Shown piece after piece: positions 2,267 through 12,222 of a stretch of DNA of 64,000 nt (positions within the stretch are counted from its first letter, which is position 1; each line of letters begins with the position of its first letter). The stretch is taken from positions 95,092 through 159,091 of IMG/VR virus record IMGVR_UViG_3300027374_000478. One strand, given 5' to 3'. Made by a program: the position numbers and the translations under genes. The notes below the pieces were generated by a model. The model had not been told where the DNA came from, ran no database searches, and saw only the letters and a list, made by a program, of their open reading frames with translations. This DNA is from a virus. Lineage: Duplodnaviria > Caudoviricetes.

Positions 2267-3037
2267 ATGTGTAATTTTAAAAGTGGAATTATTTTGAAGA
2301 ACAGGGTTGTTTTAGCACCAGAAGGAAATGAAAGTCATTTGGATTTGTTAGAGAGTCTTGGGATTGAGGATACTCACATGAATGCATCTAAAACATTTGT
2401 AAGAGCAGAGTTAATTCCTAAAAATAATGATAAAATGACCAATGTAAAAGACTGGAGATATAAGGTCGATCAGGATATTGTACCTGATTGGTACGAAAGA
2501 GACCCAGAGAGATATGAGCAGGATTTTAGAAATGCAGTTGAAGAATATATGAATGAGTGGAGAAAACAGTTCAAATTCATTTGCGGGCATTATTGGACAA
2601 GTGTACAGGATGGAGATTGTACATATTACTTCATGAATGGAATTCTTAAAAAGTCAGAGTTTGGTAAAACAAATAATTATGTAGAATCTTATGTACGAAA
2701 TGATCTTATTAATAGTGAATTGTCTGAGGATTTAAAGAAAGAATTTGGAGATAAACTTGTTCCGATTTCTCTTGATTTGACTTCTATGGATGGATTTAAA
2801 GATTATGGAAGTGTTGAAGGTGATATTTTAGCAATCCCAAATATTCAGTTGCTTATGAAGTTTGGTGAAAGTATTCCATTGATTGATAATTGGTATTGGC
2901 TTGCTAATCCTAATCAGACACCGAAGAGAAACGATGCCCGCTATGTTCGGTACGTTATCTCCGATGGCGATGTGCGCTGCGGCGATTGCGGCTGGAATGA
3001 CTGGGGCGTGCGTCCGTTTTTCATCCTTCAATCTTAA
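2267..3037 (+). CDS. DGR target protein with C-terminal C-type-lectin-like (DUF6273-like) variable domain
   Basis: WYWL..P..YVRYV..GVRPFFIL C-terminus; 3' end carries the VR that matches the TR. Confidence 0.9.
   Translation: MCNFKSGIILKNRVVLAPEGNESHLDLLESLGIEDTHMNASKTFVRAELIPKNNDKMTNVKDWRYKVDQDIVPDWYERDPERYEQDFRNAVEEYMNEWRKQFKFICGHYWTSVQDGDCTYYFMNGILKKSEFGKTNNYVESYVRNDLINSELSEDLKKEFGDKLVPISLDLTSMDGFKDYGSVEGDILAIPNIQLLMKFGESIPLIDNWYWLANPNQTPKRNDARYVRYVISDGDVRCGDCGWNDWGVRPFFILQS
2936..3018 (+). repeat. DGR variable repeat (VR) with GC-rich IMH end
   Basis: 83-bp ungapped match to 3529-3611; 16 mismatches, all opposite TR adenines. Confidence 0.97.
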
Positions 3038-3058
3038 ATCTTTGAATCTTGCAAAAAA

Positions 3059-3111
3059 TCATCGGGTAGCCAGTAATCAGGAATGCGTCAGCATCCCGTA
3101 GGCAGCCGATG
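3059..3111 (+). other. GC-rich stem-loop downstream of VR (candidate DGR target-recognition hairpin)
   Basis: tcatcgg..ccgatga outer stem with inner ggaatgc/gcatccc hairpin; position matches known DGR hairpins. Confidence 0.6.
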
Positions 3112-7169: not shown

Positions 7170-7231
7170 AAAGGATACGAATGTTCACTGGTGAAGAAAG
7201 CTGCGCAGCTACTAAGTAATGGTGAACAAAA
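7170..7231 (+). promoter_or_regulatory. Palindrome-containing leader element A
   Basis: AAAGGA, then stem 7182-7189/7221-7228 enclosing AGCTGCGCAGCT; 12-codon uORF 7181-7219. Confidence 0.6.
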
Positions 7232-7876
7232 ATTAAGGTATTAGAATTATTCGCAGGTACAAGAAGTATTGGTAAAGCATTTGAAGCAAGAGGTCATAAA
7301 GTTTTCAGTGTTGAATGGAATAAAGATTTTGAAAACATCGACCTATATGAAGATATTAGTAAAGTTACAGCACAAGACATTTTAAACAAGTTTGGAAAAC
7401 CTGATGTTATTTGGGCGAGTCCTGACTGTACGACTTTCAGCATTGCGGCAATTAGTCATCACAGAAGAAAGAATCCAGAAACAGGAAGTCTTGAACCTAT
7501 CAGTGATTATGCAAAGTTCTGTGATAAAGTAGATCAACATGTTATTTCGCTTATCAAAGAATTAAATCCTACATACTACTTCATCGAAAATCCCCGTGGT
7601 GGCATGAGAAAGATGTCTTGGATGCAAGACTTACCACGATATACGGTTACATATTGTCAGTATGGCGATGAAAGAATGAAACCTACTGATATCTGGACTA
7701 ATCATCCAAATCCTAAGTTTAAACCCATGTGTAAGAATGGCGATCCATGTCATGTATCTGCTCCAAGGGGAGCTAAAACAGGAACACAGGGACTTAAAGG
7801 TAGTATTGAACGAAGTAAAATTCCATCAGCATTATGTGAGCATATTGTTGATATTTGTGAAAAAAACATTAGGTAA
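7232..7876 (+). CDS. C5 cytosine DNA methyltransferase-like protein (ATT start, or a 1-nt frameshift after ATG 7219)
   Basis: Frame of ORF 7604 extends to 7232: IKVLELFAGTRSIG (motif I), WASPDC (IV), IENP (VI). Confidence 0.8.
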   Translation: MKVLELFAGTRSIGKAFEARGHKVFSVEWNKDFENIDLYEDISKVTAQDILNKFGKPDVIWASPDCTTFSIAAISHHRRKNPETGSLEPISDYAKFCDKVDQHVISLIKELNPTYYFIENPRGGMRKMSWMQDLPRYTVTYCQYGDERMKPTDIWTNHPNPKFKPMCKNGDPCHVSAPRGAKTGTQGLKGSIERSKIPSALCEHIVDICEKNIR

Positions 7877-7990: not shown

Positions 7991-9379
7991 TTGGAAAGTA
8001 ATAATAAAAGATTTAGTTTATCAAAAAATTGGAAACTGGTAAATTTCTGTGAGTTTGATAAGTATGCGACTAAAAGCTATTGTGCAATTCACAGAGTAGA
8101 TGAGAATTTAAACCTTGGTGATATTACTGAGGTTGATGGAACAAAATTAGAAGATTTTAATATGATTTGTGGAGGGAGTCCTTGTCAGGATTTCAGCGTA
8201 GCTGGTAAACAAAAGGGTTCTGTGTGGACTTGTAATGGTTGTGGACATGAATATAACCCTCTAACGGTACATTGGAGTCAGAGAGATAAATGTCCTAATT
8301 GTGGAAGTAATAATATTGAAAAAACAAGATCGTCACTTCTTGTTGAGTATTTGAGAGTAATCCGAGGAAATAAACCTAATTTTGGAATGTATGAAAATGT
8401 TAAAAATATTGTGGGTAAACAATTCAGAGATACTACATTCAAATTATTTGAAGATGAGTTACATGAGTATGGCTACAATACATATTGGAAAGTGCTGAAC
8501 GCAAAAGATTATGGTATTCCTCAAAACAGAGAGCGAGTATATCTGATCTTTATCAAGAAAGACTTAGACAACGGTAAGTTTGTGTTCCCTAGAGAATTTG
8601 ATAATGGAATTCGTTTGAAAGATGTTTTGGAAGATGAGGTAGATGAAAAATATTATATTTTTGATGATAAAGTGCAGAGATTTTTAACAAATCTAAATAC
8701 TAATACTTCTTTACTATATGATCCGTGTCAGGTAAAAAGAGAGGGTAAATCAAGGGAATATAATGATTACTGTCCAACTCTCACTTCAAGAGACTATAAA
8801 GATCCCAGATTGGTAAATGAAAATGTAGTAAAACAAGTCGGAAATATTTCTGATTGCAATGGGAATTGGAAGAATCCACAAGTGGGGAGAATTTATGATC
8901 CCGATGGTTGTTCACCGACATTAAATACTTGTGGCGGAGGTAGCCATGAACCTAAGATTGTTCAGGTTGGTAATGTAAATCCATCTGGTAAAGGTATGAA
9001 TGGTAATGTATTTTCAGAAGATGGACTAGCACCAACTTTAACAACAAATAAAGGTGAAGGAAATAAAATTTTAACAGGTATTAGAATCCGCAAACTAACG
9101 CCAAAAGAAACTTTCAGGCTTATGGGATTTTCTGATTCGGCATATGACGCTGCAAGCAAAGTTGTTAGCAACAGCCAGCTTTATAAACAATCAGGGAATT
9201 CAATAGTAGTAGATGTTTTATATTACATATTAGTTGAGTTATATAAGGCAATGCCGTACCTATTTGATGATTTAAAACTGAGCAGTTTCTTCTCAGGTAT
9301 TGGTGCATTTGAGGCTAGTTTGGACAGATTGTATGAAAGCATTAATACTGGAAATTTTACCAAACCACAAGCGGAGTAA
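7991..9379 (+). CDS. Circularly permuted C5 cytosine DNA methyltransferase with Zn-ribbon insertion
   Basis: GGSPCQDFS (IV), ENV (VI), PQNRERVY (VIII), RKLTPKE (IX), YKQSGNS (X), then motif I FFSGIGAFE at the C-terminus. Confidence 0.9.
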   Translation: MESNNKRFSLSKNWKLVNFCEFDKYATKSYCAIHRVDENLNLGDITEVDGTKLEDFNMICGGSPCQDFSVAGKQKGSVWTCNGCGHEYNPLTVHWSQRDKCPNCGSNNIEKTRSSLLVEYLRVIRGNKPNFGMYENVKNIVGKQFRDTTFKLFEDELHEYGYNTYWKVLNAKDYGIPQNRERVYLIFIKKDLDNGKFVFPREFDNGIRLKDVLEDEVDEKYYIFDDKVQRFLTNLNTNTSLLYDPCQVKREGKSREYNDYCPTLTSRDYKDPRLVNENVVKQVGNISDCNGNWKNPQVGRIYDPDGCSPTLNTCGGGSHEPKIVQVGNVNPSGKGMNGNVFSEDGLAPTLTTNKGEGNKILTGIRIRKLTPKETFRLMGFSDSAYDAASKVVSNSQLYKQSGNSIVVDVLYYILVELYKAMPYLFDDLKLSSFFSGIGAFEASLDRLYESINTGNFTKPQAE

Positions 9380-9392
9380 ATTCTGCTTGTGG
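9352..9392 (+). promoter_or_regulatory. Candidate programmed -1 ribosomal frameshift signal
   Basis: In-frame A_AAT_TTT heptamer 9352-9358, 6-nt spacer, 12-bp hairpin 9365-9392; -1 frame open to 9951. Confidence 0.75.
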
Positions 9393-9951
9393 CGAAGAAG
9401 TAATATGTATTGATGATACACAAGGTTTTGATGGTGCTAGATTTTACAAAGATTATGTTCCAACATTGCGAAGTCAAAGAAGCGGATTAAAAGTTGCTTG
9501 TATTAAAGATAAAGAATATTTAGATATTTGTATCAACGATAGAGGAAAGGTAAATAAAAAACCACAGATAACATATGGGCATTCGCCAACACTTATTTCT
9601 GAATTTCATGGGAATTTACCAAAAGTTGTTGAGGTAAGAGGTGCCGCTATGCGTGGTAGGTACAATTCAGATGGAAAAACAGAACAGAAAATAGAAGTAA
9701 GAGATGATGAGTTGTCTAATGCAATTACAACTGTACAGAAAGACTCGTTAATTGTAGAAAATAAGTCTTGGTTCGAAAAGAAATATACAGAGTTTTATGA
9801 GAAATATGGTTATATTCCAGAATATTTTGTTCCATATAACGGAACTGAATGTAAAGATTATGCATCGACTTTAACTGCAAATTCTAATACAAGTCCAACA
9901 CATTCTGGGACGATTTTAATTATGGAGATTGGCAAAGAAAAGAAGTCTTAA
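9358..9951 (+). CDS. -1 frame extension of the C5 MTase (target-recognition-like repeats)
   Basis: Repeated PTL/STL/AITT segments like the MTase variable region; no own RBS. Confidence 0.7.
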   Translation, partial: YQTTSGVNSACGEEVICIDDTQGFDGARFYKDYVPTLRSQRSGLKVACIKDKEYLDICINDRGKVNKKPQITYGHSPTLISEFHGNLPKVVEVRGAAMRGRYNSDGKTEQKIEVRDDELSNAITTVQKDSLIVENKSWFEKKYTEFYEKYGYIPEYFVPYNGTECKDYASTLTANSNTSPTHSGTILIMEIGKEKKS

Positions 9952-9971: not shown

Positions 9972-10670
9972 GTGATTAATATAAATATTGAGCATAATTG
10001 GATAGAAACATTTATAACAGAAAGTAAGAAAAAAGAATTAGAAATAAGAAGGAAAATTGATAAACAAAAAACAATCATGAAAACAATTACTAATGAAGAA
10101 TCTAGCGTTGTGGATGATTTTTGCATGACTTTACAAAGACGTTCTTCGAGTTGGGGTGATTTTATTGTAAGTTTGGATAAAGTAAATGAAGCATTATTAG
10201 CTGGAATACCATTAAGAGAAATAATTTATAACTATTTAGAAAATAAAAAATGTTCAAGTTATGGAGGAGAGAATATGATGGATCATTATGTCGGAGCATT
10301 TAATACAGAAATGTTACCAATTGAAAAAATTTTAACATGTAGAGAGAAAGATATTAGAATTGTAGATGTAAATCTAATTGTGCCAGACAAGGTTGTAGAA
10401 GTTACATTTGCAGATGGAACAAAAGAGAAATCTGTATGTAGAGAACCTGATACATTCAGTTTGGAATCTGCAATTTCTATCTGTATTTCCAAGAAGATTA
10501 TGGGTGGATCATCTGCTTATAATAATGCGATTAGACGTGGTATGAAGGTCTATGAGAAGAAGTTAGAGTATGCAAAGAATAACACAAATCTTCCAGATAA
10601 TCCAGACTACAAGCGGATCAATGAATTTGTAGCAAGTGTGAATGAGAGAGTTGTGAAAGGAGAAGTATGA
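9972..10670 (+). CDS. hypothetical, probably chimeric protein
   Basis: 232-aa ORF with an internal GGAGGAG RBS/ATG near 10275. Confidence 0.6.
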   Translation: MININIEHNWIETFITESKKKELEIRRKIDKQKTIMKTITNEESSVVDDFCMTLQRRSSSWGDFIVSLDKVNEALLAGIPLREIIYNYLENKKCSSYGGENMMDHYVGAFNTEMLPIEKILTCREKDIRIVDVNLIVPDKVVEVTFADGTKEKSVCREPDTFSLESAISICISKKIMGGSSAYNNAIRRGMKVYEKKLEYAKNNTNLPDNPDYKRINEFVASVNERVVKGEV

Positions 10671-11380
10671 AGAGACAGATTAGAAGAAATGTTTTTGAAA
10701 CAAATTCGAGTTCTATGCATAGTTTAACAGTTATGAAGAGAGATGATAAATATACTCCAGAAGAATTTTTAGACGGAATATATTTATGTAAAGACGAAGA
10801 TACAGGCGAGGAATCTTGTGTTTGGGAGCCTTGGGATCACGATTTGGAATTTGGTAGGAGTCCATTTAGGGCTTTGGGAACATTTACAGATAAATGGTTG
10901 TATGCGTGTGCTTCGTTGGTTCATGACTATAATGATGATGTTTATAAAGAACTCGTTGCACTTGCATTGAAATATATACCAGGTCTTAAAAAGATCAAAC
11001 TGCCAATGGACAGTGATAGTATTGCAGATAAAAATGATGAAGAACATAAAAACGATGACTATTATCAGAAGTATGGTAAGACAGAAGATGAACTAAAAGA
11101 ATATTTATCACAGAAAGAAAAGGATTGGGGTTTTGAACTTGAGTATTGGAAATCTTCAAATGGCTGGTGGCATTATGACAAACCATGTACAGGATATGTT
11201 GATGAAGATATTCTAAGTGGATTTTTAGAGCATGAAGGTATTTCTCTTGAAGAATATCTTATAAATAAGAAATATGTCGTCATTCAAGACGGTGATGAAT
11301 ATTGCTATTGGGACAATATGAAGCAAACAGGGCTAGTAAATATGGATATGATTGATCATGAATATCCAAGAGAGGATTAA
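10667..11380 (+). CDS. FETNSSS-motif protein 1
   Basis: N-terminus MKRQIRRNVFETNSSSMHSL. Confidence 0.85.
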   Translation: MKRQIRRNVFETNSSSMHSLTVMKRDDKYTPEEFLDGIYLCKDEDTGEESCVWEPWDHDLEFGRSPFRALGTFTDKWLYACASLVHDYNDDVYKELVALALKYIPGLKKIKLPMDSDSIADKNDEEHKNDDYYQKYGKTEDELKEYLSQKEKDWGFELEYWKSSNGWWHYDKPCTGYVDEDILSGFLEHEGISLEEYLINKKYVVIQDGDEYCYWDNMKQTGLVNMDMIDHEYPRED

Positions 11381-11387
11381 GGGATCA

Positions 11388-11834
11388 ATGAAAAGGAAGA
11401 TTAGAAAAGGTGTATTTGAAACAAATTCGTCTTCGGTTCACAGTTTGGTTATTTCTAATGAGGGCAGGGAACCGAGTGAATTCAAACTGAATAAGGATGG
11501 AGAAATAGAAATTGATTTTGGACAGTTTGGAAAAGACAAACGTATTTATACATCACAATATGACAAACTTTCCTATCTGATTACTTGTTTATATTATCTG
11601 TCAGGATATGATATATCTGATATTTATGACAAGTGGGAATTTAGAGAAATTCAGGATGCTATTTGTAAATATACAGGTGCGACAGGAATTAAGATTTTAG
11701 GAGAACAGGAACCAGAGATTGATCATCAGTCGCAGCCCTATGGCAATATTGAAATTGTCAATGTTTATGATGAGGATGCGGTTATCAATTTTGTATTCAA
11801 TAAGTATGTGTCATTAAAAACAGATTGTGATTAA
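11388..11834 (+). CDS. FETNSSS-motif protein 2
   Basis: N-terminus MKRKIRKGVFETNSSSVHSL. Confidence 0.85.
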   Translation: MKRKIRKGVFETNSSSVHSLVISNEGREPSEFKLNKDGEIEIDFGQFGKDKRIYTSQYDKLSYLITCLYYLSGYDISDIYDKWEFREIQDAICKYTGATGIKILGEQEPEIDHQSQPYGNIEIVNVYDEDAVINFVFNKYVSLKTDCD

Positions 11835-11850
11835 GGAGGAAGTTTATTTT

Positions 11851-12222
11851 ATGAAGAGGGAAGTAAGACGTGGAGTATTCGAGACAAATAGTAGTTCAGT
11901 ACATAGTTTAACAATGTGTTCTGGAGAAGAGTACAAAAAGTGGGAGAACGGCGAAGTATTATATTGGGAAGAGGAAAATAAATTTGGAACCAAAGAAGAA
12001 ATCATTGAAGAAATGAAAAAAATGAAGTGGCATGATGGAACACCACGATATGAAAAGGTTAATTGGGAAAATGAGGATACAGTAGATGATATTTTTTCAG
12101 ATGAAGGAATCAAAACTTGTGAAAAATATTTTGAAAATGATTGGTATGAGACATATGAGAAAAAGTATACCACTCAAAACGGTGAAGAAGTTGTAGCATT
12201 TGGATATTACGGTCACGATTAA
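11851..12222 (+). CDS. FETNSSS-motif protein 3
   Basis: N-terminus MKREVRRGVFETNSSSVHSL; AAGGAGG RBS. Confidence 0.85.
   Translation: MKREVRRGVFETNSSSVHSLTMCSGEEYKKWENGEVLYWEEENKFGTKEEIIEEMKKMKWHDGTPRYEKVNWENEDTVDDIFSDEGIKTCEKYFENDWYETYEKKYTTQNGEEVVAFGYYGHD

Follow-up and report, generated by a model that had tools for sequence, protein, structure and literature searches.

How does a phage DNA methyltransferase gene come to be followed, in another reading frame and without an initiation signal of its own, by a second set of DNA recognition modules? The question is raised by a locus in a 64,000-nucleotide stretch of viral DNA (Duplodnaviria; Caudoviricetes), called the window here, which covers positions 95,092 to 159,091 of the IMG/VR record IMGVR_UViG_3300027374_000478. 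The window is the final 64 kb of this 159-kb provirus record, the completeness of which is estimated at 92%. Phage programmed frameshifting is known chiefly from tail chaperone, capsid and polymerase genes. The comparison of the locus with its relatives indicates that a programmed -1 ribosomal frameshift probably takes place at the 3' end of the gene for a putatively multispecific phage C5 DNA methyltransferase. The slip would append an array of target recognition domains (TRDs) to a fraction of the enzyme molecules.

The probable slip signal

The coordinates of the signal, of the two reading frames that it would connect and of the modules encoded downstream are collected in Table 1. The -1 frame is shut by a TAA codon at 9343-9345, is open from 9346 and ends with the TAA at 9949-9951. 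It overlaps the 0 frame solely at 9346-9379, around the slippery heptamer. The heptamer is in register, with position 9352 being the third base of a GGA codon and GGA AAT TTT being read as X_XXY_YYZ. An initial annotation of this DNA had pointed out the heptamer, a 6-nucleotide spacer, a hairpin that holds the 0-frame stop and 197 open codons in the -1 frame up to position 9951, and all of these were confirmed. The annotation counted 12 base pairs in the stem; RNAfold pairs 9365-9375 with 9382-9392, giving 11 base pairs and a possible twelfth, G-U, pair.

Within its 76-nucleotide context the hairpin has a folding energy of -21.6 kcal/mol (z = -4.5), and none of 200 shuffled sequences folds equally well. 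The sequence AAATTTT occurs 79 times on the two strands of the window, and only at 9352 does a stable fold follow (-18.2 kcal/mol vs a mean of -3.2 and a standard deviation of 2.6 at the other sites). The stem was also considered as a transcription terminator. This was rejected because no T-run follows the stem, which furthermore lies within a conserved coding frame.

Table 1. Features of the methyltransferase locus in the window, with the evidence for each or its occurrence in relatives
Feature	Position	Strand	Evidence or occurrence
0-frame gene, C5 DNA methyltransferase, short isoform (462 residues)	7991-9379	+	PF00145, TIGR00675, homologues
Slippery heptamer A_AAT_TTT, 0-frame register	9352-9358	+	Reading frame check; invariant in 30 distinct junctions
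-1 extension, 197 codons and stop, reachable from the upstream frame only	9358-9951	+	Open reading frame, TRD homology, purifying selection
Spacer ACCAAA, 6 nucleotides	9359-9364	+	In relatives the sequence varies, length 5-6 nucleotides
Putative stimulatory hairpin, arms 9365-9375 and 9382-9392, 0-frame stop in loop	9365-9392	+	Folding, covariation, unrelated stems
0-frame stop TAA ending the short isoform, in hairpin loop	9377-9379	+	In relatives 22-31 nucleotides from the first base of the heptamer
TRD module A (ICIDDTQGFDG..PTLRSQRSGLKV)	9400-9495	+	Internal in P0002, P0003, P0012; extensions of L012, L068, L085
TRD module B (ICINDRGKVNKKPQITYGHSPTL..GNLPKVV)	9526-9630	+	Extensions of L029, L032; internal in P0003
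TRD module C (GAAMRGRYNSDGKTEQ..AITTVQKDSLIVE)	9640-9759	+	Internal in canonical methyltransferases and permuted loci
TRD module D (SWFEKKYTEFYEKYGYIPEYF..ASTLTANSN..GTILI)	9766-9921	+	Extensions of L013, L028, L140, L144; in frame in P0001

The permuted methyltransferase core

The product of the 0-frame gene matches Pfam family PF00145 at 4e-59 and also TIGR00675. It has the conserved motifs (FxGxG, PCQ, ENV, QxRxR and GNS) and the fold of the C5 methyltransferases, but the motif order is permuted, motif I following motif X. The 462-residue protein begins at motif II (WKLVNFCEFDKYA), which is followed by PCQ, a zinc ribbon (CxxC..CxxC), ENV, QNRER, three TRD modules of the TL type and motifs IX and X. 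Its C-terminal end is motif I (FFSGIGAF) and the helix after it. The complete order is thus II-IV-(zinc ribbon)-VI-VIII-three internal TRD modules-IX-X-I. Hundreds of homologues have the same order and the same two ends, and therefore the permutation, already proposed in the initial annotation, is real. The cut lies between motifs I and II. Hundreds of homologues, 72-100% identical, likewise keep the stop of the short form. At the DNA level the core and one internal TRD match the genes of phages SPR, H2 and rho11s with 68-71% identity.

In three loci (L116, L121 and L128, at about position 1800 in each) a canonical C5 methyltransferase gene is directly followed by a second canonical one, with motif I and then motif II at the boundary. 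The permuted fusion in the window would be expected to derive from such a tandem pair.

Conservation of the junction

Relatives were collected from two sources. The viral set has 80 loci, mostly on phage contigs of about 150 kb. The set from bacterial genomes has 56 loci, about twenty of them with the permuted end, and comes from Lachnospiraceae, Blautia, Dorea, Coprococcus, Lacrimispora, Oscillospiraceae and other Clostridia. Six further loci were added for close protein homologues, and in addition L001, the locus that encodes protein P0001. The window, L001 and those viral loci that have a readable end give 81 junctions with 51 distinct sequences.

The heptamer, the hairpin and a -1 open reading frame (ORF) of at least 50 codons occur together in 62 of the 81 junctions. 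Three more have the heptamer and the hairpin with a truncated -1 ORF, seven have the heptamer alone, without hairpin or -1 ORF, five have no heptamer, and in four the 0 frame continues. The outcome that would have spoken against the initial annotation, homologues that are simply fused in frame or have no signal, thus fails for most of them. The full signal is also present in further lineages from Clostridia genomes, and L108, with just 38% protein identity, retains it. The heptamer columns are invariant in the 30 distinct junctions that were aligned, and the codons on both sides of them vary freely. The hairpin is absent from the permuted methyltransferases that lack an extension, and most of these lack the heptamer as well (the L017 class, L023, L004, L081, L084, L093 and L096-L103).

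Some junctions depart from this pattern. A sub-lineage comprising L047 (positions 2980-3110), L048 and L066 has no AAATTTT. In its place stand GAATTT and a tract of 4-9 C, then a stop-holding hairpin and finally a -1 ORF that encodes an A-type TRD. The variant with nine C, L066, is in frame. The tract could be a phase-variable homopolymer, another slip site or an error of assembly. In L086 (positions 2172-2218), from a Lachnospiraceae isolate, one T of the heptamer is lost (AAATTTA), which puts the upstream frame into +1 with a stop just past the hairpin. Either this copy is broken or the lost T is a sequencing error.

The same conserved region is the site of an insertion. In L062 (positions 1015-1783) and in protein P0191 an ORF resembling an HNH-type endonuclease (CEICGS..HNH, with an AP2-like tail) separates ..LYE from SINTGNF a few codons before the slip site. 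It is in frame, is flanked by a short duplication and is followed by a normal heptamer and hairpin. In L004 and L084 the HNH ORF is a +1 ORF right after the methyltransferase stop, and it takes the place of the tail. The HNH ORF looks like a homing element aimed at the conserved junction.

A change of frame could also occur in the nucleic acid, if the A3T4 run gave rise to slippage during transcription or to phase variation of the DNA. The C tract of L047, L048 and L066, which lies at the same place and is in frame at nine C, would fit such a process. A run of three A and four T is, however, far below the tract lengths at which slippage is generally known, its length is invariant in all assemblies, and neither mechanism requires a hairpin. 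A change at the nucleic acid level is scarcely credible as the explanation of the locus.

Selection on the hairpin

In the alignment of 30 junctions 93.8% of the cells pair, whereas a shift of the 3' partners by one to three columns lowers this to 36-49%. Six stem pairs have changed on both sides. A model-fitted alignment that adds the genome loci raises this to 9 of 11 pairs, although an alignment of this kind leans towards the structure. The stem of the main lineage is CCACAAGC/GCTTGTGG, with variants that include CTACAAG/CTTGTAG and TCACAAGC/GCTTGTGA.

At least seven unrelated stems are found at the same place, 5-6 nucleotides past the heptamer and with the 0-frame stop in the loop or next to it. 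Other stems are GGAGAAGAG/CTTCTTCTCC, CCGCCAA/TTGGCGG, CCGTCAG/CTGACGG, CTGCCGA/TCGGCAG and CCCTCGCA/TGCGAGGG, as well as CCATGTC/GACATGG in the poly-C sub-lineage. A covariance model built from the main stem missed the wholly different stems of L094, L095, L104 and L047, which were revealed by folding. The structure of the hairpin rather than its sequence appears, from these comparisons, to be under selection.

Coding selection in the -1 frame

The first ATG, GTG or TTG codon in the -1 frame of the window is the TTG at 9466, within a PTLRSQ module. It has no Shine-Dalgarno sequence ahead of it, in agreement with the initial annotation, which had noted that the frame lacks a ribosome-binding site. 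Four relatives (L014, L035, L060 and L070) have no such codon at all in the 98 codons of their extensions. In other loci the first start-like codon is found 20-90 codons in, deep in a module and without a Shine-Dalgarno sequence.

Between relatives that carry the same array, the differences at the first, second and third codon positions number 471, 175 and 1127, and 916 codon changes are synonymous vs 591 that are non-synonymous. Modules C and D of the window differ from those of L140 at 6, 2 and 21 sites by codon position (21 of 29 at the third) and from those of L144 at 15, 5 and 33 (33 of 53 at the third). The other two frames of the same C-D DNA contain 6 and 10 stops, whereas the -1 extensions are free of stops over 55-199 codons. 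Coding selection is apparent from the first codons past the stem. The substitution pattern indicates that the -1 extensions are under purifying selection in that frame, and that the frame is apparently translated without initiation of its own.

These data bear on the proposal that the extension is a separate gene, expressed by termination and reinitiation at the loop stop or from a non-canonical start, with the hairpin regulating initiation. The stop adjoins the extension, and gene callers do predict downstream ORFs of 90-160 residues in relatives. The starts that they call, however, lie within TRD modules, no ATG, GTG or TTG is conserved near the stop, several extensions are devoid of them, and purifying selection begins right past the hairpin. 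An invariant heptamer at a fixed distance is left unexplained, and the in-frame fusions described in the next section show the extension working as part of the methyltransferase chain. A separate gene is thus very unlikely.

The junction might instead be a fixed frameshift mutation, and the extension the unexpressed, decaying remnant of an in-frame fusion or of a second methyltransferase in tandem. Such a history would accommodate the in-frame relatives (L001, L037, L066 and L089), the truncated extensions of L029, L052, L058 and L080, the deletion of one nucleotide from the heptamer of L086 and the tandem canonical genes of L116, L121 and L128. It would require a ratio of non-synonymous to synonymous substitution rates of about 1 in the extension, which is not the case: the third-position bias and the synonymous excess in the -1 frame extend across many lineages, and reading frames of 55-199 codons have stayed open where the other frames have 6 and 10 stops. 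Nor does decay account for the compensatory changes in the stem or for the conservation of the short-form stop across the hundreds of homologues of 72-100% identity. An unexpressed remnant is therefore extremely improbable.

In-frame fusions

Four relatives are natural in-frame fusions, each with a different indel, and are exceptions. L001, which encodes P0001, has lost 2 nucleotides of the heptamer together with the stem. L037 has lost 5 nucleotides of the loop, the stop included. L066 has the C9 tract, and L089 has no heptamer. The existence of four fusions, each created by a different indel, speaks for the long protein as a real product, and the fusions show that the long chain is a viable protein.

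In P0001 the internal TRDs are lost and the C-terminal TRDs alone are kept. This arrangement is expected if C-terminal TRDs can serve the core, but it could alternatively reflect decay of P0001. The structure of P0001 was predicted with AlphaFold2. A shallow alignment gave a mean predicted local distance difference test score (pLDDT) of 44, and an alignment of 133 rows was used for the results. In this model the core has a pLDDT above 90, including the strand (residues 328-332) and the helix (residues 338-352) of the C-terminal motif I, and its best fold match is M.HhaI (E = 7e-19).

Modules of the extension

The extension has no match in the Protein Data Bank (by sequence search), Pfam or NCBIfam, and in the phage collection it has just two weak protein matches and no close DNA relative. 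It does match the variable region of 118 C5 methyltransferases, and it is because of this homology that the extension is identified as a TRD array, as the initial annotation had suspected from its TRD-like repeats. About nine module types can be distinguished (A to I), each with a TL, TT or TI hallmark. Of the canonical methyltransferases compared, 39 carry module C internally, as do 9 permuted loci; the module is 70% identical to the C-terminal end of P0001. The canonical-order proteins P0002, P0003 and P0012 carry modules A, B and C internally, in tandem.

The window has three internal and four C-terminal modules of the TL type, which are shuffled among the relatives. Its array is A-B-C-D, whereas that of L140 is G-C-D, of L144 E-C-D, of L139 E-C, of L012 F-A, of L032 B-G and of L053 H-C. 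Relatives in which the C-terminal end of the core is 92-99% identical to that of the window bear different arrays, and therefore array exchange is fast relative to the divergence of the core. The conserved junction marks the point at which TRD arrays are swapped among related phages.

This placement suggests another role for the inverted repeat, that of a DNA-level recombination site used chiefly for the exchange of TRD cassettes, frameshifting being incidental. The variable arrays do start directly past the repeat, and cores with 92-99% identity carry A-B-C-D, G-C-D, E-C-D or E-C. A sequence-specific site would not, however, accept seven unrelated stems, and the locus has no linked recombinase gene. 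It would also leave unexplained why the heptamer is invariant, why the spacing stays at 5-6 nucleotides and why the stop is in the loop. Homologous recombination in the conserved junction suffices for the exchange and is compatible with a programmed frameshift. A dedicated recombination site is, on balance, highly unlikely.

Proposed mechanism

A -1 frameshift cassette is recognized by an X_XXY_YYZ heptamer in the 0-frame register, by a stable, selected RNA structure 5-9 nucleotides downstream and by an overlapping -1 ORF that is under coding selection without an initiation signal of its own. Each of these was found at the junction. The initial annotation had read it as a -1 frameshift site, and the conserved signal, the covariation of the stem and the start-less -1 ORFs under purifying selection support that reading. 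Each of the four alternatives discussed above leaves several observations unexplained.

At A_AAU_UUU, the P site of the ribosome would hold tRNA-Asn, paired with AAU, and the A site would hold tRNA-Phe, paired with UUU. The hairpin, 6 nucleotides downstream, would be positioned at the mRNA entrance and would hinder translocation. Some ribosomes would slip one base back (AAU to AAA, UUU to UUU) and continue with TAC CAA.., creating the junction peptide ..TGNF-YQTTSGV... Those that do not slip would melt the hairpin and end at the UAA in the loop, releasing the 462-residue enzyme, a complete permuted methyltransferase with its three internal TRDs. The slipping ribosomes would make a predicted enzyme of 653 residues (456 + 197), in which the four added modules (A-B-C-D) extend from the helix after motif I. 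The added modules may let the same catalytic core methylate further targets and so protect the phage genome more widely against host restriction enzymes, and a fixed ratio of short to long form may keep both sets of specificities active. That the extension widens the methylation specificity has about an even chance of being correct. More tentatively, the junction may be a portable docking point, at which a permuted methyltransferase cut between motifs I and II accepts fast-shuffling TRDs in cis after motif I, and at which the ratio of the isoforms sets the breadth of anti-restriction methylation.

Several points weigh against a programmed frameshift or its proposed function. The heptamer A_AAU_UUU allows only two of the three P-site base pairs to form again, and no Shine-Dalgarno-like enhancer is visible upstream of it. 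Both arms of the hairpin are also coding, for PQA(E/D) in the 0 frame and for SACG in the -1 frame, and their conservation in the main lineage could in part be due to protein constraint. This is not the whole explanation, because unrelated stems occur at the same place. A single metagenome project supplied many of the loci, and these are related to one another; the junction counts are thus not counts of independent events. Finally, the extension of P0001 (residues 359-482) has a pLDDT below 50, and the model therefore gives no placement of a post-motif-I TRD at the DNA cleft.

Relation to known systems and significance

The junction resembles that of Escherichia coli dnaX, which makes the tau and gamma proteins in a set ratio and likewise has an X_XXY_YYZ heptamer, about 6 nucleotides of spacer and a stem-loop of about 11 base pairs. 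The dnaX frameshift is reviewed in PMC5009743. The slip in dnaX leads to the shorter product, whereas in the window it would lead to the longer one. Furthermore, dnaX has the heptamer A_AAA_AAG and a Shine-Dalgarno-like element upstream that helps the slip, whereas the window has A_AAU_UUU and no such element was seen. M.AquI and M.EcoHK31I are similar in that recognition or small-domain parts come from a separate reading frame, but each of their two chains has its own initiation, and the chains come together in trans, with neither a slippery site nor a covalent fusion.

Like M.SPRI, M.Phi3TI, M.H2I and M.Rho11sI of the SPbeta group, in which each of several independent TRDs gives one target specificity, the enzyme has one core with several tandem TRD-type modules that contain a Thr-Leu motif. 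The SPbeta enzymes have the canonical I-X order and all of their TRDs between motifs VIII and IX, in a single ORF, whereas the core in the window is permuted, with motif I at the C-terminal end, and a second TRD array lies past motif I in the -1 frame, behind the proposed frameshift. Motif X also precedes motif I in the natural permutants M.BssHII, M.Alw26I, M2.Eco31I, M.Esp3I and M2.BsaI. According to PMC5944983, every natural permutant present in REBASE in 2018 had its cut in the variable region (Type H), whereas in the family of the window the cut separates motif I from motif II. For the M.BssHII-type enzymes no frameshift is described. The tail assembly chaperones G and GT, for which Xu, Hendrix and Duda 2004 is the -1 frameshift reference cited in PMC10885494, are comparable to the proposed site in having a frameshift that is conserved among phages, gives some of the molecules an additional C-terminal domain and keeps its position as its sequence drifts. 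They belong to a different gene family with a different role, and what would be added in the window is an array of shuffled DNA recognition modules on an enzyme.

A search of the literature on frameshifting and DNA methyltransferases found no report of such a case. The sole methyltransferase mentioned in a 2016 review of recoding is the yeast tRNA methyltransferase ABP140/TRM140, and the 'methyltransferases' listed by PRFect are the erm leader.

If frameshifting does occur, many phages of gut Clostridia use recoding to let one catalytic core serve two sets of DNA recognition modules, which bears on the escape of phages from restriction. It would also account for hundreds of 'hypothetical' ORFs called downstream of such genes, and would offer a natural scaffold for engineering methyltransferase specificity. 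Gene callers would then be cutting the permuted methyltransferase short. If the junction is in addition a docking point, then the placement of TRDs in C5 methyltransferases is topologically free, and this would be the first translational recoding that controls DNA methylation specificity.

Other features of the window

Nearly all genes of the window are on the + strand. An alternative genetic code was considered and rejected, the ORF density being normal throughout the window with table 11.

Upstream of the methyltransferase gene, positions 7226-7876 (+) contain an open frame of 216 codons with motifs like those of C5 methyltransferases (LELFAGTRS, SPDCTTFS and ENPRG). Its DNA matches Bacillus phage genes named 'C-5 cytosine-specific DNA methylase'. 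The first ATG, GTG or TTG is found only at codon 127, and therefore an unusual start or another route of expression is needed for this frame.

Downstream, positions 10667-12222 hold three genes in tandem that have a 59-nucleotide repeat in common at their 5' ends (direct repeat family D1). The repeat codes for M(K/R)R.(I/V)R(R/K)(N/G)VFETNSSS.HS.

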